From the NCBI GenBank assembly GCA_020054475.1, contig JAHWGJ010000005.1, forward strand, positions 1,025 to 65,024: 64,000 bases of DNA. Direction: 5' to 3'. The position numbers were made by a program, and so were the translations under genes. Every line of letters starts with the position of its first letter. Within the stretch, counting starts at the first letter, position 1. Under the pieces are notes generated by a model. That model did no database searches. It was not told the origin of the DNA and was given only the letters and a program-made list of their open reading frames with translations. Shown piece after piece: positions 4,674 to 62,994 of the stretch. The stretch is from Thermoplasmata archaeon (GTDB taxonomy: Archaea > Thermoplasmatota > E2 > DHVEG-1).

Positions 4674-6590
4674 ATGTTTAATAAATTATCATTAAAAATA
4701 ATATCAATACTAATAACAATTATCTTTATTATAACATGTTTTTCATCTGTTAATGCAAATAACTCCAAATTAAATTATATTGAATTAGAATTAAATTTTT
4801 CGCCTCCTGAGATTATACCTTATAATGAAAATATTATTATTAAAATAAAAGAACAGGATTTTAGCAGAATGGATTTTGGAAAACCAGTAATACCATATTG
4901 TTTATTTGAATATGATCTAATATTTGGCTCAGATATAATAAATATCGAATATGAAAATTCAAATCCAATTATATATAATCTAACACAACAAATTGCCAAA
5001 GCTTCATATCCTAGATTTGACAAATTGGATATTTACAATGATATTAAAAAAATTAATCCTCAAAATTCATACAATTCATATCCCTCAGATTGGGTCTCTT
5101 ATCATAAAGGTGGTGGAATAAAAAAAGGAATTCATAAGACATTTTTTTCATTAAGAGTATATCCCATAATTTATTATGAAAATGTTAATCAAATAAAATT
5201 CATAAGTAACATCACCATTAAAATTACATATCAAGAACCAGAAAAACCTATTCTTAATGATCCAGATGTTTATGATTTATTAATATTAACACCAACAAAA
5301 TATGAAGAATTATTAAATCCATTATCAGATCATAAAAACAATTTTGGGGTATCCACAAAAATTGTAACTTTAGATAAGGTATATGAAGAAATGTATTGGC
5401 ATGGTAGAGATAAACAAGAAAAAATTAAATATTTCATTAAAGAATCAATTGAAAAGTGGGGAATAACTCATGTATTATTGATAGGTGGATTAAATGGTCA
5501 AACAACTACATGGGATTTTCCAATAAGATATAGCCATGTTGTACCGCCGGATGAACAAGAATATGCAGAACAAACCTTCATATCGGATCTATATTATGCT
5601 GATATATATGATAGTAAAGGTGAATTTATAACCTGGGATTCAAATAATAATGATATTTTTTCTCAATGGAATGAAACATATAGAGAAGAAATGGATCTCT
5701 ATCCTGATGTATATCTTGGAAGATTACCATGCCGAAATACAAATGAAGTAAAGATAATGGTCAATAAAATAATTAATTATGAAAAAGAAAAACTAAGTAA
5801 TGAATGGTTTAAAAATTTACTACTAGTAGCTGGAGATTCATATAATGATACCGCACACTTTAATGAAGGCGAACTAATATCAAATAAAGCAATAGAGTTA
5901 ATGCCAGATTTTACCCCAATTAAGGTTTATTCATCGGAACAAGACATCAATCGTAAAACAGTAAATAATGCTATGAATCAAGGATCAGGATTCGCCTACT
6001 TTTGCGGGCATGGAAGCCCCGCATCATGGAGTACCCATTTTCCACCTGATGGAAACAAATGGACAACAGGTTATAATGTTAATGATATGATATTTTTAAG
6101 AAACAAAGAAAAATTACCAATTACCATTGTGGGGGGATGCCATAACGGTGAATTTGATGTTTCAATGATGAATATTATTGAAGGGATAATCGAACACGGA
6201 TTAAGAGAATATTTCTTTCAACCTCCTTTTTGGTTTTATTATAATGAATGGGTCCCCAACTGTTGGGCTTGGTGGCTAACCAGCAAATCAAATGGAGGAG
6301 CAATAGCAACAATTGCAAATACCGGACTTGGAACTCATGGGGAAGATGACTCTGATAATAATTCCATTGCTGATTATCTTGAAATTTTAGATGGATGGTT
6401 AGAATTGAAATTCCTTCAATTATATGGGGAAAACAATTTTGATTGTCTCGGAGAAAATCACGGGGATTCTCTATCTGGTTATTTAAATAGATTCCTTGGA
6501 GATAATGCTAAAATGGATGTAAAAATGGTTCAACAATGGGAATTATTTGGAGATCCAAGCTTAAAAATTGGCGGATATGATACAAAATAA
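4674..6590 (+). CDS. peptidase C25 (gingipain-like) family cysteine protease, secreted
   Basis: Signal peptide. Gingipain-like catalytic His (FCGHGSPASWS) and Cys (VGGCHNGEFD) contexts. YDLLILTP...LLIGG architecture. Paralogue of 50350..52329. Confidence 0.7.
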   Translation: MFNKLSLKIISILITIIFIITCFSSVNANNSKLNYIELELNFSPPEIIPYNENIIIKIKEQDFSRMDFGKPVIPYCLFEYDLIFGSDIINIEYENSNPIIYNLTQQIAKASYPRFDKLDIYNDIKKINPQNSYNSYPSDWVSYHKGGGIKKGIHKTFFSLRVYPIIYYENVNQIKFISNITIKITYQEPEKPILNDPDVYDLLILTPTKYEELLNPLSDHKNNFGVSTKIVTLDKVYEEMYWHGRDKQEKIKYFIKESIEKWGITHVLLIGGLNGQTTTWDFPIRYSHVVPPDEQEYAEQTFISDLYYADIYDSKGEFITWDSNNNDIFSQWNETYREEMDLYPDVYLGRLPCRNTNEVKIMVNKIINYEKEKLSNEWFKNLLLVAGDSYNDTAHFNEGELISNKAIELMPDFTPIKVYSSEQDINRKTVNNAMNQGSGFAYFCGHGSPASWSTHFPPDGNKWTTGYNVNDMIFLRNKEKLPITIVGGCHNGEFDVSMMNIIEGIIEHGLREYFFQPPFWFYYNEWVPNCWAWWLTSKSNGGAIATIANTGLGTHGEDDSDNNSIADYLEILDGWLELKFLQLYGENNFDCLGENHGDSLSGYLNRFLGDNAKMDVKMVQQWELFGDPSLKIGGYDTK

Positions 6591-7154: not shown

Positions 7155-7394
7155 ATGATTAATGCATATATCCTTCTATCTATGAAGCCTGGTAAATCTG
7201 ATACGGCTATACTAAAAATGAGAAAAATTGAAAATGTTGAGAAAATATCAATAGTAGCCGGAGATTATGACATTGTAGTCAGAGTTCACGTTAAATCTTT
7301 GGAGAAATTACTTATTGTAACTGATAAACTTCAAATGATAGAAGGCGTTAGAAAAACAACTACCCAAGTAATTGAAAAAGAAATAGCATTATGA
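7155..7394 (+). CDS. stand-alone Lrp/AsnC-type ligand-binding (RAM) domain protein
   Basis: 79 aa with the pattern AYILLSMKPG...VAGDYDIVVRV typical of the AsnC_trans_reg fold. No HTH domain. The stop overlaps the next start (ATGA). Confidence 0.7.
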   Translation: MINAYILLSMKPGKSDTAILKMRKIENVEKISIVAGDYDIVVRVHVKSLEKLLIVTDKLQMIEGVRKTTTQVIEKEIAL

Positions 7395-17510: not shown

Positions 17511-17584
17511 GGGCTTGTAGCTCAGCTAGGCAGAGCAATCGGCTCTTAACCGATTGGCCAGGGGTTCGAATCCCCTCAAGCCCG
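17511..17584 (+). tRNA. tRNA-Lys (anticodon CTT), no encoded CCA
   Basis: Manual cloverleaf: acceptor GGGCTTG/CAAGCCC, D arm GCTC/GAGC, anticodon arm ATCGG-CTCTTAA-CCGAT, T arm AGGGG-TTCGAAT-CCCCT. 74 nt. The only strongly GC-rich island in its neighbourhood. Confidence 0.9.
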
Positions 17585-22506: not shown

Positions 22507-23148
22507 ATGAAAAATAAGTTAATAATGGCTACATCAATTTTTATAATAATTATTCTTGGTTTATCAAGTATCAACGTTGTTACTGGATATAAGGGTGGAA
22601 AAAATCAAACAAATTCTCTGAGTGTTGAAGAAATTGAAGGGATTTTGTTTATAAGGGAAGAAGAAAAAATGGCTAGGGATGTATATCTGACCTTCTCTTT
22701 AATATATGATGAAGTATCAATTTTTGAGAATATTGCTGCTAGTGAGCAGAGACATATGGATGCTATTAAAAATCTGATTGATAAATACAATCTTGTTGAT
22801 CCAGTTGGTGATAACCCTATAGGCATATTTGAAAATAGTGTCATACAAGATTTATATAATATACTGATTTCTCGTGGAGAAATATCATTAATAAATGCTT
22901 TATCTGTAGGTAGATATATTGAAGAATATGATATATTTGATATTAGACAGCATCTCGAAGAAACTGATAAAGCTGATTTGATCCGTGTTTATCAGAATCT
23001 GCTTGAGGACTCATACAATCATCTTAGATCATTTGTTTCTGTTTTAGAACAACAAGGTGGAACCTATAATCAAGATCCAATACTTTCACCTGATGATCTT
23101 AATGAGATATTAAATGGGGAAAAAATTAATAGGAAAGGTAGAAATTGA
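22507..23148 (+). CDS. DUF2202 (ferritin-like superfamily) secreted protein
   Basis: EEEKMARDVYL...IFENIAASEQRHMDAIKNLIDKY pattern recalled from DUF2202, plus a second E..H-type helix pair. Signal/anchor at the N-terminus. Confidence 0.7.
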   Translation: MKNKLIMATSIFIIIILGLSSINVVTGYKGGKNQTNSLSVEEIEGILFIREEEKMARDVYLTFSLIYDEVSIFENIAASEQRHMDAIKNLIDKYNLVDPVGDNPIGIFENSVIQDLYNILISRGEISLINALSVGRYIEEYDIFDIRQHLEETDKADLIRVYQNLLEDSYNHLRSFVSVLEQQGGTYNQDPILSPDDLNEILNGEKINRKGRN

Positions 23149-23168
23149 ATAATAAATGGAGGTGTAAT

Positions 23169-23687
23169 ATGAAAAAAATAATGTTATTAATAGCAGTATC
23201 AGCAATTTTATTATTAGGAGTTGTTGAAGTAAATGCAAAAGGATTTCAAGATAATGGTGAGAAAAACATTGATTATAAGCCATTACCTAATGGTGATGGG
23301 TTGATGCAAAGATTACGAAATCGAATATGTGATACTCTTGGAATCTGCCAAGGGGGTGTTGATCTAACCACCATTACAGGATTGCTTACTTATGATGGTA
23401 CAAATTTCTATATAGATGATGTTGAACTACATTTTGGACCAACTTGGTTTATTGTATCTGCTGAATCAAGTGTTGATTATGATAATGATGGGGAATTAGA
23501 ACTTGTATATGATGAAATACAGGGACTTGTTGGAACAGAAATAACTGTTGAAGGACATTTGCAATCAAGTGGTTGGATGAGTGTATTCACTATAAATGGA
23601 GAAATCTATAGGGAACCTGGGCAACCTATTTGGGCGTCTCAACATCAATGGCGTTGGCGAAATAAAAATGGCCCAAATAAGCCATAA
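23169..23687 (+). CDS. secreted hypothetical protein
   Basis: Start set to ATG 23169, 5-6 nt after GGAGGTG. Signal peptide MKKIMLLIAVSAILLLGVVEVNA. Trp/Arg-rich C-terminus. Confidence 0.5.
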   Translation: MKKIMLLIAVSAILLLGVVEVNAKGFQDNGEKNIDYKPLPNGDGLMQRLRNRICDTLGICQGGVDLTTITGLLTYDGTNFYIDDVELHFGPTWFIVSAESSVDYDNDGELELVYDEIQGLVGTEITVEGHLQSSGWMSVFTINGEIYREPGQPIWASQHQWRWRNKNGPNKP

Positions 23688-23697
23688 GTTATTTATT

Positions 23698-23720
23698 AGG
23701 AGGTTTTAATCCTCCTTTTA
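23698..23720 (+). terminator. stem-loop AGGAGG-TTTTAAT-CCTCCT followed by TTTTA
   Basis: Read directly from the sequence, 11 nt after the stop at 23687. Confidence 0.4.
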
Positions 23721-23748
23721 TAATTTTATTGGAGGGATTTTGATAAAT

Positions 23749-23780
23749 ATTCGAAAAATTTCCAAGAATGCTTTTATAGG
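23749..23780 (+). promoter_or_regulatory. conserved promoter-proximal motif ATTCGAAAAATTTCCAAGAATGCTTTTATAGG (copy 2)
   Basis: Matches 22224..22254 at almost every position. TTTTATA box ~35 nt before ATG 23814. Confidence 0.6.
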
Positions 23781-23813
23781 TTTGAAAATAAAGTTAGATT
23801 TGAGTGTATTAAT

Positions 23814-25091
23814 ATGAATAGAAGAAAGATTAGTTCAATAATGGTTTTTTTTATTGTTTCATTATTTTTTATTTCAATATCATTATTGCCAGCTATAGCT
23901 GATCCAGGGGATGGCAAAGGAGATGGTAACGGTGATAAGGATCCTCCAACTCCACCAAAAGGTCCAGATGATGATAAAGGAGGAGATGATGATGGCAGTG
24001 GAGAGCAGAATCAAGAAGGGAATAATAGTGAAGATAATGATCATAATAATGAACAGAATCAAAATGGGGGGAATAATGGAGAGCAAAATCAGGAACGTAA
24101 TCAAAGCCGTGAAGGTGATGATGATAATGATGATATAGATGATGATCAAGAGAGATATCAACAAAGAAAGATGAAAATCGAATTGGAGCGAAATCGTACT
24201 AGAATTAGATCCGAGTGGGGGCAAGATGATTATGAGGATGAGCTTGAAATATTATTTGAAATTGACCATGGACCTAGATTAAGACTTGATTATGAAAATA
24301 ATTTGCATTCATCTGAAAATGAACTAAGTTTTGATGTGAAAATTAGAGAACTAATCGAATATAGAGACACAAATAGGAATGGTAGATATGATGAAGATGA
24401 TATAATTATAGATACTTATTCTTTTGAGAAATCAAATTTTAAAAATTTTACTTATCAAAACCAATTATCAGATGATGGGGAGAATATCAATTTTGTGTCA
24501 ACTCAAACTGAAGACGAAGTTTTTAAAATGAATCTATATTTTTCTGGTAATTTTTCTCAGATAAATAATCAAATACTTTCACCTTCTGAAGTTAAGATTG
24601 ATTTTATTATTAACAATTATCCTTATGAAGAAGAAGATACGCAGTTAGCTTTGAGAACAATGTTGAATACAAAACATGAAACTGAGTTAGAAACTGAATC
24701 TTTTGATGAAGTGCAAGGTTTTTCAGAGGACGAAAGTGTATTAGATATTAATTCATTAAATAATGGTGGATTTTTCTCTTGGGCTGAAAATGTTATAGTA
24801 GATGGAATTGTAAAACCAATTAATTCAACAATCAACTCTCAAATAGAAGAAACAATTAGAGAAAATGAAAAAATTTCTAATAAAATCATCAACATATATT
24901 TTTCATATCCTAGAGGGACCAATATTGTTCATGATCCAAAACTTGGTATTGTCAGTATCTCATTTGAAACATTTGCACTTCAATCAATTAGTAATTTAAT
25001 AAATATTGATAACATTGTATCTTATGTGGGAATCTGCATATTAGCATCTATTATGTTTTTAGGTGTTATTTTTATTAGAAAAAGGATTTAA
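23814..25091 (+). CDS. secreted protein with long acidic low-complexity region and C-terminal TM anchor
   Basis: Signal peptide, a ~100-aa D/E/N/Q/G-rich tract, a globular part, and a C-terminal hydrophobic helix plus RKRI. Confidence 0.55.
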   Translation: MNRRKISSIMVFFIVSLFFISISLLPAIADPGDGKGDGNGDKDPPTPPKGPDDDKGGDDDGSGEQNQEGNNSEDNDHNNEQNQNGGNNGEQNQERNQSREGDDDNDDIDDDQERYQQRKMKIELERNRTRIRSEWGQDDYEDELEILFEIDHGPRLRLDYENNLHSSENELSFDVKIRELIEYRDTNRNGRYDEDDIIIDTYSFEKSNFKNFTYQNQLSDDGENINFVSTQTEDEVFKMNLYFSGNFSQINNQILSPSEVKIDFIINNYPYEEEDTQLALRTMLNTKHETELETESFDEVQGFSEDESVLDINSLNNGGFFSWAENVIVDGIVKPINSTINSQIEETIRENEKISNKIINIYFSYPRGTNIVHDPKLGIVSISFETFALQSISNLINIDNIVSYVGICILASIMFLGVIFIRKRI

Positions 25092-25134
25092 ACTATTATA
25101 TTTTTATCATATTATTTATATTATGATTTATTAG

Positions 25135-25422
25135 ATGGTGGTTGAAATGGATATTGGAACGATGTATAGTATCATTATATACGCTTTTATTACAATTTTT
25201 TCTATTGGTTTATTTAGTGTTTCTATTCTAAGTTATAATAAATCAAAAAATAAAAAATTACTTTTTGTTTCAACTGTTTTTCTTTTATTCTTTATCAAAG
25301 GTATTATTCTTAGCCTGAGTTTATTTTTACCAGATTTAAATTTAACTGTTACCATCCCCGTATTAGCAGTTTTTGATTTGCTGGTTTTATTCTTACTTTT
25401 TATTGCTACATTAAAGAAATAG
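25135..25422 (+). CDS. small 3-TM membrane protein
   Basis: Three hydrophobic helices. 95 aa. 10 nt upstream of the regulator gene. Confidence 0.4.
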   Translation: MVVEMDIGTMYSIIIYAFITIFSIGLFSVSILSYNKSKNKKLLFVSTVFLLFFIKGIILSLSLFLPDLNLTVTIPVLAVFDLLVLFLLFIATLKK

Positions 25423-25432
25423 TGGTAACCTT

Positions 25433-25948
25433 ATGCAAGATGTTCTTGAACTTGAAACTCGGAGAAAAATCTATGATTTAATCCATCAAAATCCTGGTAT
25501 TCATTTAAGTAAAATTTCACAGATATTAAAAATGAGAACCTCTCTTGTTGAATATCATCTTCTTTTTCTTGAAAAACATGAAATTATATCGCCTGACAAA
25601 GAAACTGGATATAAAAGATATTATTTAAAAGGTCAAATTGGTGTAAAAGATAAAAGATATTTATTCATCCTCAGACAAAAAACTGTATTGGAAATCATTT
25701 TATTTTTATTGAAAAATGACGTTTCACTTCACAAAGTAATTTTAGAAAATGTTAATGTATCACCATCTACCCTTTCTTATCACCTTAATAAACTTATAAA
25801 AAATGATATAATTGAATTAAATAGATATGGTGAAAACAAAGGCTATAGAGTAAAAAATAGGGATGAAATTGTTTCGATATTGATACAATATAAACCATTC
25901 AGAATTTTAGATGGTTTTGAGGATATATGGAATGATTTAACAATTTAA
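25433..25948 (+). CDS. double winged-helix (ArsR-like) transcriptional regulator
   Basis: Two wHTH units (IYDLIHQNPGIHLSKISQILKMRTSLVEYHLLFLEKHEII and a second one with STLSYHLNKLIKNDII). Confidence 0.6.
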   Translation: MQDVLELETRRKIYDLIHQNPGIHLSKISQILKMRTSLVEYHLLFLEKHEIISPDKETGYKRYYLKGQIGVKDKRYLFILRQKTVLEIILFLLKNDVSLHKVILENVNVSPSTLSYHLNKLIKNDIIELNRYGENKGYRVKNRDEIVSILIQYKPFRILDGFEDIWNDLTI

Positions 25949-26050
25949 TTTTTTTTGTCTCTCAAGAGGCATCATAACAAAGTTTTTTGTATTGAATAGA
26001 TTTTAATATAAGGAAAAAAGAAGTGTTGTAGTGAGATAGAAATGAACTTC

Positions 26051-26150
26051 CAAATCGTCAAAATTCAATAAGGGAATTTTTTGTATTTTCTTGAATTTTT
26101 TTTCTCCGAGAATCCTGTATTAATACCCTCAACCCCGTAATTATTATCAT
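26051..26150 (+). repeat. ~100-nt repeat, copy A
   Basis: Aligns with 26901..27000 in direct orientation, roughly three-quarters identical by eye: TCGTCAAAATTCAA...TTCTTGAATTTTTTTTCTCCGAGAATCCTGTATTAATACCCTCAA...TTATCAT. Confidence 0.6.
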
Positions 26151-60663: not shown

Positions 60664-60780
60664 ATGGGCTTATCCGAGCTCGAGTTGCCTTACAGTAGAG
60701 ATTACTCTGGATTGTCCCCAATTTTTGGGGTCAACTCAAAGCCCGGTCCTTTTTCACTTTAAATCCTTTTTTTCTTTTTA
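60664..60780 (+). repeat. conserved ~115-nt element, copy C (candidate structured RNA or recombination site)
   Basis: Aligns with 62874..62994. Contains AGAG-ATTA-CTCT and CCCCAA-TTT-TTGGGG hairpins, possible closing helices GGGCTT/AAGCCC and GAGTTG/CAACTC, then T5/T7/T5 runs. Confidence 0.6.
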
Positions 60781-60869
60781 AAAATTAAATTTTTTAGTAA
60801 TACTTTTGAACAATATTTACATATAATTAATGATTATTAGATGATGACAGATGTTGGGGGAGACATTCA

Positions 60870-62102
60870 TTGGATTATTCTTTATGGTTAATAATCGGTG
60901 GATCTAGTGCTATTGCCTTTTACATGGCTTGGAGCATTGGTGCAAATGATGTTGCAAATTCAATGGCTACTGCTGTTGGTTCAAAAGCTATTACATTTAA
61001 ACAAGCTGTGGTTATTGCAGGTGTTCTTAATTTTATTGGAGCTGTTTTTGTGGGCCCTCATGTCGCTGAAACTATTAAAGGTAAAATCATTAATGTTGAT
61101 ATTATTGCACCCGAGATTTTATTACTTGGTTTCATTTCTTCTATTCTTGCTGCTGCAATTTGGGTTACATTATCAACATGGAAAGAGATGCCGATTTCAA
61201 CGACTCATTCAATTATTGGAGCTATGATGGGTTTTGGATTAATTGCAGGTGGAATTTCACTTGTAAATTGGATGAAAGTTGGATCAGTCGCTGCAAGTTG
61301 GGTATTGTCTCCACTTGCTGGATGTGTATTAGCATTCATTATTTTTAAAATTATAATTAAACTAATTTTTGCAAAAGAAAATCCAGTTGAATCTGCTAAA
61401 ATAATAGGTCCTTTAATTATTGGTGTAACAGCTTTTTTAATAACTTCATCTTTATTATTAAAAACATCTTTAGGGGATAGACTAAAAGTTTCTGATTTTG
61501 AAGTATTGTCAATTTCATTAGTTATAGCAGTTATTATTTCATTAATTGGTATAATTCTACTTAGAAAGATAAAATCAAAATCAGTTGAGGATTATAAAAC
61601 AGTAGAAGGAATCTTTAGAAAACTGCAGGTAATAACATGTTGTTATGTTGCTTTTTCACATGGTGCAAATGATGTAGCAAATGCAATTGGACCTGTTGCA
61701 GGAATTATCCCTCTTGCAAGTACAGGAGAATTGAATCCCACTGCTCAAATCCCAACTGCCCTTTTAGCCCTCGGTGGTTTTGGAATTGCATTTGGTTGTA
61801 TGACTTGGGGAAGAAAGGTTATGGAAACTGTGGGTAAGAAAATAACAAGTTTAAATCACACGAGAGGTTTTTCTGTTGAATTTGCAGCTGCAACTACTGT
61901 TCTCGTAGCTTCAAAACTGGGTTTACCAATATCAACATCGCATACTGTTGTTGGGGCAGTTATAGGTGTTGGACTTGCTAGGGGTTTGGAAGCTGTTGAT
62001 ATCGCAATTATAAAGAAAATTGTTGTTTCATGGCTTCTTACCTTACCTGTTGCTGCTTTAACCTCAGTGGTAATTTTTATATGTTTGAGATTTATATTAT
62101 AA
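60870..62102 (+). CDS. pitA: inorganic phosphate transporter, PiT family
   Basis: Duplicated GANDVAN signature (aa ~24 and ~266). 10-12 TM helices. TTG start 8 nt after GGGGGAG. Confidence 0.9.
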   Translation: MDYSLWLIIGGSSAIAFYMAWSIGANDVANSMATAVGSKAITFKQAVVIAGVLNFIGAVFVGPHVAETIKGKIINVDIIAPEILLLGFISSILAAAIWVTLSTWKEMPISTTHSIIGAMMGFGLIAGGISLVNWMKVGSVAASWVLSPLAGCVLAFIIFKIIIKLIFAKENPVESAKIIGPLIIGVTAFLITSSLLLKTSLGDRLKVSDFEVLSISLVIAVIISLIGIILLRKIKSKSVEDYKTVEGIFRKLQVITCCYVAFSHGANDVANAIGPVAGIIPLASTGELNPTAQIPTALLALGGFGIAFGCMTWGRKVMETVGKKITSLNHTRGFSVEFAAATTVLVASKLGLPISTSHTVVGAVIGVGLARGLEAVDIAIIKKIVVSWLLTLPVAALTSVVIFICLRFIL

Positions 62103-62125
62103 AATTATAGGATTGTGTGAAATTG

Positions 62126-62824
62126 ATGGTTAAAAAAAGAGATCATTTTAGAGCCCCTGTTTCAGATACTTTTAGAAGAAAATCCCCTTTTAGACAATTA
62201 CTTCTACATATGAAAAAAGTCAGAAAATGTATTGATATCCTTGGAGAGGGTTTAGTTATATATTACAAGGGGGATTATAAATCGTTTTCAAAATTATCTA
62301 AAGATGTATCAAAAATTGAACATGAAGCCGATTTAATAAAACGAAACATTAGAAATCATCTTCCCAAAACACTTTTTATGCCTGTTGATAAAGGTAAATT
62401 TTTATGGGCATTGAGAGAAGAAGATAAAATCCTTGATCATGCTGAAAATCTTGTTAAAATGCTTGAAATGAGACATACAAAGATACCAAAAGAATTACAA
62501 GATATGTTCATTAATCATTTGGAATTAGTTGTAAAAACAGTAAGTACTGTTGAAGATGCTGTAAAACATATAATGAATTTACTTGAAGCAAGTTTTATTC
62601 AGAGGGAAAGGGAACATGTTAAGCAATATATCTATCAAGTTCATCAACATGAGTGGGAAGCAGATCAGATTAAAATGAACATAAATAAAAAAATCTATGA
62701 GATTGAAAAAAAATTAGCCCCCATGGATGTTTATCATTTATTAAAAATCGCTGATTGGGTGGATGATATTGCTGATCATTCAGAGAATGTTGCAGATTGG
62801 TTAAGATCAATGATTGCAAAATAA
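62126..62824 (+). CDS. DUF47 / PhoU-like phosphate-transport regulator (Pit accessory protein)
   Basis: Helical protein with E.EAD..KR and W.DDIADHSE motifs, adjacent to pitA as in the known pit-DUF47 pairs. ATG 62126 preferred over the GTG at 62117. Confidence 0.85.
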   Translation: MVKKRDHFRAPVSDTFRRKSPFRQLLLHMKKVRKCIDILGEGLVIYYKGDYKSFSKLSKDVSKIEHEADLIKRNIRNHLPKTLFMPVDKGKFLWALREEDKILDHAENLVKMLEMRHTKIPKELQDMFINHLELVVKTVSTVEDAVKHIMNLLEASFIQREREHVKQYIYQVHQHEWEADQIKMNINKKIYEIEKKLAPMDVYHLLKIADWVDDIADHSENVADWLRSMIAK

Positions 62825-62873
62825 TTAATTATAACTGTTAAAAGTATATAAAAAGATATTTAAATATATATAT

Positions 62874-62994
62874 ATGAGCTTAGCCGAGAGTGCTATGTCT
62901 TAAAGGAGAGATTACTCTGGGTAGCCCCCCCCATTTTTGGGGTCAACTCAAAATCTAGTCCTTTTCACTTTAAAATCCTTCTTTTTTACTTTTT
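62874..62994 (+). repeat. conserved ~115-nt element, copy D
   Basis: ATGAGCTTAGCCGAG...GAGAGATTACTCTGG...CCCCATTTTTGGGGTCAACTCAAA...GTCCTTTTCACTTTAAAATCC. Same orientation as copy C, 2210 nt downstream of it. Confidence 0.6.

Follow-up and report, generated by a model that had tools for sequence, protein, structure and literature searches.

Displaced tRNA fragments mark the far end of genomic islands, the principle behind Islander and TIGER (PMC4383910). In archaea, short att direct repeats, tandem integration and loss of the integrase have been reported (PMC6563490, PMC8371274). The subject here is a pair of direct repeats, designated copies C and D, which bracket a pitA-DUF47 phosphate-transporter module in a 64-kb stretch of DNA (the window) from a Thermoplasmata archaeon. 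The window comprises positions 1025-65024 of contig C33 of the metagenome-assembled genome (MAG) G000, which is 72% complete and consists of 46 contigs in an assembly of 1.68 Mb. The two copies are, with a probability of about 0.8, relics of attR-type junctions left by family-specific integrative elements that target tRNA genes. Features of this kind are well known, and no description of the element family or of its structured arm could be found in the literature or Rfam.

The elements share with tRNA-gene islands and with the integrative mobile genetic elements of archaea a displaced tRNA 3' end at the distal boundary, an integrase at one end, short att repeats (13-17 bp), the use of many tRNA species as targets, tandem integration and integrase loss (PMC4383910, PMC6563490, PMC8371274). 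They differ from the described islands in their conserved arm of ~95 bp with two boxes and a covarying inverted repeat, in their host, an uncultured family of the Thermoplasmatota, and in that most copies, including those of the window, are integrase-less relics. SSV-type elements with "suicidal" integrases likewise have archaeal hosts, use tRNA 3' ends as targets and leave relics trapped in chromosomes, but their attP lies within the integrase gene and splits it (PMC7253208). The present elements are not of the SSV type since their integrase gene is not partitioned by att, being whole and adjacent to the tRNA gene in genomes G002 and G029; elsewhere it is C-terminally truncated, and it reads toward the tRNA gene, as in the pNOB8 or intact type. 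Integrase-less cargo between direct att sites is also known from the cis-mobilizable elements (CIMEs) related to integrative and conjugative or integrative mobilizable elements of Streptococcus, with which the present arrays share a presumed origin by accretion and deletion and the prospect that the integrase of an incoming element could mobilise the cargo (PMC5704250). CIMEs differ in being bacterial and tied to conjugative elements, and the cassette boundaries described below do not lie at a single att crossover. The concept of CIMEs and accretion reportedly stems from the original work on ICESt1.

Displaced tRNA ends in the window and in related genomes

The first 13 nucleotides (nt) of C and of D each match the 3' end of the tRNA-Val(CAC) gene of G000 at 12 of 13 positions. 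This tRNA gene opens contig C42, two bases in, with its 3' end (CGGCTAAGCCCAT) at C42:3-15. A search of both strands of the assembly for this 13-mer, allowing one mismatch, found three sites, which are the tRNA gene itself and the starts of C and D, and the strand of the matches makes the two starts direct repeats of the tRNA end. Both copies therefore show at their distal boundary the direct repetition of a tRNA 3' portion that characterizes tRNA-targeting elements. Copy E, the single element of the same-genus genome G001, matches the 13-mer at all 13 positions. The partner tRNA-Val gene at the start of C42 presumably lies downstream of contig C33. A link between the two contigs based on synteny was considered and dropped, the tRNA-distal flank not being conserved between genera. 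The assemblies break at the 3' end of tRNA-Val (G000:C42:1-80), at the end of copy E (L009, G001:C159) and inside tRNA-Val (end of G001:C37), as would be expected of a strain-variable integration hot spot.

The wider family of elements was delineated with two covariance models, a sequence-only model of five copies (R1) and a broader structural model built from 26 seed sequences (R2). R1 matches 28 of the 108 genomes of the GTDB family within the Thermoplasmatota, and R2 matches 58 of them, representing 29 of 40 genera with one to six copies per genome. Among the other genomes of the class there was a single weak partial match. The element has a constant layout. It opens with 13-17 nt that vary among copies and ~12 further variable nt, which are followed by the CAACAGGAGA box, an inverted repeat (spacer of 14-20 nt), a TCTATCTCACTAAAAC-type box and a T-run, the family consensus of the tail being TCTATCTCACTAAAAC-YTTTCTTTT.

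What varies at the 5' end follows the partner tRNA. At 15 loci the element begins with an exact repeat of 9-17 nt of a tRNA 3' end (13-17 nt in 12 of these), the partner tRNA genes being convergent, 0.5-11 kb away and specific for Val, Arg, Met, Pro or Ile; four further loci have degenerate matches. An intact convergent partner in direct-repeat orientation is present at 19 loci of relatives, the tRNA-Val partner of C and D lying on another contig. The tRNA-Val set comprises seven genomes of different genera with an opposite-strand tRNA-Val gene 1-11.3 kb downstream of the element and an exact repeat of 9-14 nt; the shortest, 9 nt in G018, belongs to a match of 12 of 13 positions. The acceptor stem of tRNA-Val reads GGCCTGGCCCA in G018 and G029, in place of GGCTAAGCCCA, and the element carries the corresponding change in its repeat. 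In a second sample, a convergent tRNA gene of another identity was found within 0.5-11 kb at 12 of the 17 loci fetched. Eight of these have exact repeats (Arg-TCG, 15 nt; Met, 14; Arg-CCT, 16; Pro, 13; Ile, 14; Arg-TCT, 17 and 13; Val-TAC, 13) and two more have degenerate ones.

Tyrosine integrase genes (PF00589) adjoin the partner tRNA gene and read toward it at four loci. In G002 a 350-amino-acid (aa) integrase lies 25 nt from tRNA-Val and bounds an element of 4.2 kb, in G029 a 315-aa integrase bounds an element of 11 kb, and in G071 and G018 C-terminal integrase fragments remain beside the tRNA gene. Direct arrays of elements also occur, with three copies distal to tRNA-Arg(CCT) on G018:C48 and further arrays in G032, G107, G088, G109, G031 and G070. 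Because the tRNA-end repeats vary with the partner tRNA, the geometry is convergent and integrases are adjacent in relatives, C and D are taken to be attR-type junctions. An earlier reading of the window, made from its letters without database searches (the sequence-only reading), had listed att or recombination sites delimiting a cassette as the third of three possible roles, and this role is supported by the tRNA-Val-end repeat, the convergent tRNA pairing and the family-wide integrases. No integrase gene was found between C and D or onward to the end of C33, and the copies of the window are therefore considered integrase-less relics and not parts of complete elements.

Each copy would then consist of a displaced tRNA 3' end, duplicated over 13 nt and serving as the identity or crossover segment, and a ~95-bp attP arm. 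The arm comprises the CAACAGGAGA box, an inverted repeat with the potential to form a hairpin with an 11-bp stem, the TCTATCTCACTAAAAC-type box and a T-rich stretch, and in intact relatives it runs straight into the first gene of the element. A tyrosine integrase would insert such small elements at tRNA 3' ends, here that of tRNA-Val(CAC). If the circular element is ordered as integrase gene, att site and arm, recombination with the tRNA 3' end would leave the integrase gene beside the regenerated tRNA gene, the arm and the displaced tRNA fragment ending up at the opposite end. Successive integrations at one tRNA gene, followed by deletions, could convert such insertions into direct arrays of junctions that separate integrase-less cargo, and this is the presumed order of events in the window.

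Two divergent copies elsewhere in G000 were recognized with R2. The third copy begins with CCCTCAACCCCGTA, of which 13 of 14 positions agree with the 3' end of tRNA-Lys(CTT), the two being the sole such sites in the assembly. The tRNA-Lys gene, which is the only tRNA gene that ARAGORN called in the window, is convergent with the third copy at a distance of 8.4 kb, and the two form a degenerate pair. The interval between them holds carAB, a DUF2202 gene, hypothetical genes and a gene for a 171-aa winged helix-turn-helix protein. Part of it (window 23145-26138) is syntenic with the interval between two elements, F1 and F2, of metagenome contig L053. F2 is a full copy upstream of arsR-arsP. F1 is split (L053 7433-7215, minus strand) into a 23-nt tRNA 3'-end fragment, ~130 nt of unrelated DNA and the 3' half of the element; its 5' part, ATGGACTTAGCCGGGTTCGAACC, corresponds exactly, as the reverse complement, to a tRNA 3' end with T-loop, T-stem and acceptor strand.

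Two side observations concern related genomes. A conserved gene for a protein of 119-123 aa, preceded by a Shine-Dalgarno sequence, lies directly 3' of the T-run of the element in several genomes (Table 1), and its product weakly resembles phage endonuclease I in Pfam (E about 0.002-0.003). Between the genera of L147 (G071:C55) and L146 (G066:C3), the segment from tRNA-Val to the distal junction appears to be inverted relative to its flanking genes, and an integrase may have mediated this inversion.

Copies C and D and the pitA-DUF47 cassette

The sequence-only reading had placed the two copies in direct orientation, at about three-quarters identity or better, on either side of pitA and DUF47. 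The placement and the bracketing are borne out, with 78% identity over ~100 nt on the plus strand by BLASTN and in agreement with alignments. Its description of the copies as unusually GC-rich also stands (42-43% G+C versus 28% for the genome), and the T-runs and the TATA-like, promoter-like box ATATTTACATATAAT that it noted 5' of pitA are present. It had further proposed that copies be counted in this and related genomes. In the assembly, C and D are the only strong copies by nhmmer and BLASTN, the two divergent ones are added by R2, and many copies exist in related genomes. A scan for an invariant 18-mer found the element in G001 alone among species-representative genomes and in two real contigs, L082 and L053, among metagenomes; viral contigs yielded no real copy.

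Copy E is 84% identical to C and sits behind an ortholog (80% aa identity) of the transglutaminase-like gene that precedes C, which makes E and C positional orthologs; the contig of E ends at its last base. An initial placement of E upstream of pitA in G001 proved wrong, since the pitA locus of G001 (C96) is the ortholog of a different locus of G000 (C21). Nothing similar to D is found downstream of DUF47 at G001:C96. Metagenome contig L082 carries an ortholog of D together with the cluster of mini-genes that follows D, and this cluster has no counterpart in G001. Past the mini-gene cluster, and beyond the window on C33, lie genes for cyanophycin synthetase and cyanophycinase (L010 10311-13905), which are unusual in archaea and may belong to the same variable region. 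A further side observation concerns the primary pitA locus of G001, just upstream of which positions 1-35 of L040 (G001:C96) resemble the 5' part of a minus-strand tRNA gene, with a D-arm-like CTCTCAGATGGTTAGAG.

G000 possesses two pitA-DUF47 loci, that of the window and that on C21 (G000:C21:3688-4914). The C21 locus is the ortholog of the G001:C96 locus (92% aa and 83% nt identity), and the window pitA is 73% identical to both. The window module is considerably closer to a second copy in another genus, on G107:C10, with 91% aa and 88% nt identity. Since it shares 88% of its nucleotides with another genus and 73% with the locus of its own genus, the window module was probably acquired by horizontal transfer, as its sequence relationships suggest. 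The G107 cassette (L167, 5128-7218) is likewise bracketed by two elements (5026-5142 and 7230-7353), but these are of other att types (one is Lys-type), have unrelated hairpin sequences and lie in a different neighbourhood; a third element is located 6.5 kb upstream of the cassette (L186 2418-2541). Homology between G000 and G107 starts within the tail box of the left element and ends just before the right element. These limits exclude the flanking elements, which suggests that the cargo was horizontally shared and the junction modules were replaced. Repeated att integration combined with deletion between the conserved tail boxes could account for the cassette boundaries in both genomes.

Several observations weigh against C and D being att junctions. 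A single att crossover does not predict both of the homology boundaries just described. The absence of an integrase gene, together with the spacing of only 50 nt from DUF47 to D, means that a model with one element per junction needs deletions. Contig C33 carries neither an integrase, nor tRNA-Val, nor an inverted partner arm; tRNA-Val(CAC) is on a separate contig, at the start of C42. The third copy and tRNA-Lys enclose the housekeeping genes carAB, so that this interval is no clean island and not all DNA between att sites can be regarded as mobile. The same cargo is found in different neighbourhoods of two genera, but no excision product, circle or empty site was observed. Finally, E and C are 84% identical, versus 73% for the pitA loci of G000 and G001, and their flanking spacers do not align; this hints at function or gene conversion beyond what is expected of a dead scar.

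Table 1. Coordinates of the elements, their parts and associated genes. Locations refer to the window unless a contig or locus is given.
Feature	Location	Strand	Evidence or remark
Copy C	60664..60774	+	R2 82.9 bits, E=1.4e-13; 84% identical to syntenic copy E (G001)
Displaced tRNA-Val 3'-end repeat, copy C (CGGATAAGCCCAT on minus strand)	60664..60676	-	12/13 match
Box region of copy C, degenerate CAACAGGAGA box = TTACAGTAGAGA	60690..60701	+	Most conserved motif of the family alignment
Inverted repeat/hairpin, copy C: ACTCTGGATTG, inner CCCCAA-TTT-TTGGGG, CAACTCAAAGC	60704..60742	+	Helix H1
Tail box TCCTTTTTCACTTTAAATCC and T-run, copy C	60747..60780	+	Start of G000-G107 cassette homology (alignment)
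pitA, second genome copy, PHO4 family	60870..62102	+	Pfam PF01384, E=1e-114
DUF47/PhoU-like partner gene	62117..62824	+	Pfam PF01865, E=9e-46
Copy D	62874..62985	+	R2 83.9 bits; near-identical ortholog on metagenome contig L082
Displaced tRNA-Val 3'-end repeat, copy D (CGGCTAAGCTCAT on minus strand)	62874..62886	-	12/13 match
Inverted repeat/hairpin, copy D: ACTCTGGGTAG, CCCCCCCC-ATTTTT-GGGGT, CAACTCAAAAT	62914..62954	+	Helix as in C
tRNA-Lys(CTT), convergent partner of third copy	17511..17584	+	ARAGORN and Rfam
Third, divergent copy, tRNA-Lys type	26016..26138	-	R2 34.1 bits, E=5e-4
Fourth, weak copy, tRNA-Met-type 5' end GTGGGTCCGGCAGG	G000:C29:5369-5486	-	R2
119-123-aa gene	L150 4238-4606; L151 3779-4150; L161 1984-2355; L164 4797-5156		

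The hairpin arm

The arm contains a family-conserved helix, H1 (ACUYUGGRUUG/CAACUCAAAGY), which encloses a CCCC...GGGG hairpin, and a weaker outer helix that pairs the purine-rich box with the pyrimidine-rich tail. Of the structures drawn in the sequence-only reading, the CCCC...GGGG hairpin is retained inside the conserved helix, and the GGGCTT/AAGCCC, GAGTTG/CAACTC and AGAG-ATTA-CTCT pairings are not conserved in the family. That reading had also suggested a covariation analysis as a check, and family alignments reveal compensatory changes in H1 that support the hairpin. H1 is 85-90% paired. When 28 copies are aligned with MAFFT, 82% of cells are paired versus 54-58% when the partner strand is slid by one column; in an alignment of 51 sequences, which was fitted to the model and so leans toward structure, the corresponding values are 80.5% and 58%. 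Double changes affect 15 of 17 pairs in the latter alignment, with 148 cells versus 61 expected, a value reached in none of 500 shuffles. The helix is eroding in both copies of the window: 5 of the 17 modelled pairs are non-standard in C and 4 in D, versus none in the same-genus copy E, and C and D have three mismatches each within H1.

Of 35 copies, 27 fold better as the plus strand than as the minus strand, and 96 G.T cells were counted versus 33 A.C cells. When one conserved column is removed from H1, the counts become 40 and 38 and no strand bias is left. Since the G.T bias stems from a single column, it does not separate an RNA or single-stranded fold from a co-evolving inverted repeat of double-stranded DNA that binds protein. 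The arm may bind a recombinase, serve as a terminator/promoter module or be transcribed into an RNA. The preferred reading combines binding of the integrase or an accessory protein with a terminator/promoter module, in which case transcription would terminate at the T-run and start ~25 nt past the CACTAAAA box.

In several genomes a shorter hairpin module lies, in sense orientation, directly 3' of genes for tRNA-Val, tRNA-Met and tRNA-Thr, and it is missing from both elements with intact integrase genes (G002 and G029). Terminal inverted repeats of a transposon were considered, as the inverted shorter hairpin follows tRNA-Val in five genomes, and were rejected on account of its absence from G002 and G029. 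A tRNA or tRNA-like gene was rejected as well, ARAGORN and the Rfam tRNA model being negative on both strands and manual cloverleaf folds having failed. Two further pairings were discarded. The outer helix GGGCUU/AAGYYC, seemingly kept by G.U pairs in E and F2, has a 5' strand that is the tRNA-derived, target-dependent repeat, and the 5' microhelix GGGCUU-AGCC-GAGCCC, viewed as an acceptor mimic, is not general across att types.

Alternative explanations and implications

The other two roles advanced in the sequence-only reading were a small RNA and a phosphate-responsive leader. A free-standing family of small noncoding RNAs, transcribed on the plus strand between the ATGGGC start and the oligo-T and with a functional tRNA-like 5' end, for example as an antisense to the tRNA 3' end or as an acceptor-stem mimic for processing, is unlikely. 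The conserved covarying hairpin, the better fold of the plus strand, the TATA-like boxes 20-29 nt upstream and T-runs downstream of all copies, and the conservation of copy E are compatible with such an RNA, as is the module behind tRNA-Val, tRNA-Met and tRNA-Thr, which would be co-transcribed as a 3' trailer. However, TATA-like and T-rich motifs are frequent at 28% G+C, the helix decays in both window copies, and the 5' 13-17 nt vary with a partner tRNA 0.5-11 kb away, with integrases at the other end. Rfam returned no match on C or D either at the gathering threshold or at E<=10, in line with the earlier statement that no described RNA family fits. Because of this negative result, the tRNA-tracking 5' end and the single-column G.U bias, RNA is unsupported as the primary identity of the element. 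A cis-regulatory leader or riboswitch of pitA-DUF47 is far less probable still. C does lie ~95 nt 5' of pitA, and an element also precedes the same pitA copy in G107, but pitA and the element share a contig in none of the 19 other genomes in which both occur, a conserved promoter and Shine-Dalgarno sequence belonging to pitA itself lie 3' of the T-run of C, the primary pitA loci of G000 (C21) and G001 (C96) lack the element, and elsewhere elements precede arsR-arsP, an endonuclease-like gene, genes for surface proteins and convergent genes. The leader is rejected because of the lack of shared contigs and the separate pitA promoter. Just as implausible is a ~32-aa leaderless micro-protein (copy C, MGLSELELPYSRDYSGLSPIFGVNSKPGPFSL). 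Conservation begins at an ATG, and C, E and F2 have an open frame, but D is interrupted by two in-frame stops and shifted by a +2 indel, D2 is shifted by a +1 indel, reading frames differ between copies and the invariant 20-nt core is devoid of synonymous variation. Arg-type copies and some others start with ACG or GTG, as these three bases are the complement of the tRNA end.

The arrays also invite comparison with integrons, whose attC sites are likewise recombination-associated repeats that are conserved in structure more than in sequence and separate cassettes in direct arrays. The present elements differ from attC sites in that they lack R/L core sites, have a tRNA-derived identity segment and occur as whole integrase-bearing elements. 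A platform on which an integrase resident near the tRNA gene captures integrase-less circular cassettes with folded sites would explain why direct arrays bracket segments of 1-7 kb devoid of integrase genes, why one pitA-DUF47 cassette is found in two genera flanked by elements that differ in att type, and why the structure of the hairpin is kept while its sequence varies. In an integron the attC site is borne by the cassette, however, and the pitA cassette shared by G000 and G107 travels with neither flanking element. The array of G032 resembles a tandem duplication of paralogous genes, complete integrase-bearing elements exist (G002, 4.2 kb; G029, 11 kb), and ordinary tandem accretion and deletion accounts for the arrays, all of which makes such a platform improbable. 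It is similarly doubtful that the arm acts as an active recombination and expression module whose hairpin is read as folded DNA or RNA, in an archaeal cassette platform analogous but unrelated to integrons; if so, a resident integrase would shuffle integrase-less cassettes such as pitA-DUF47 among tRNA-anchored arrays.

If C and D are attR-type junction relics, as preferred here, an apparent new RNA family becomes a marker, in that the ~110-nt unit of arm and displaced tRNA end flags the boundaries and relics of integrated elements in more than half of the sampled genomes of a poorly studied family of sediment Thermoplasmatota. Scars of this kind are common in genomes, and the element family of these sediment archaea was previously uncatalogued. 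Integration at tRNA-Val would explain why MAG assemblies of these organisms break there, and the conserved, covarying arm would offer a defined substrate for studying site recognition by a family of archaeal tyrosine integrases. For the organism of the window, a second phosphate-transporter module, pitA-DUF47, would be horizontally shared cargo that lies between such junctions in two genera.

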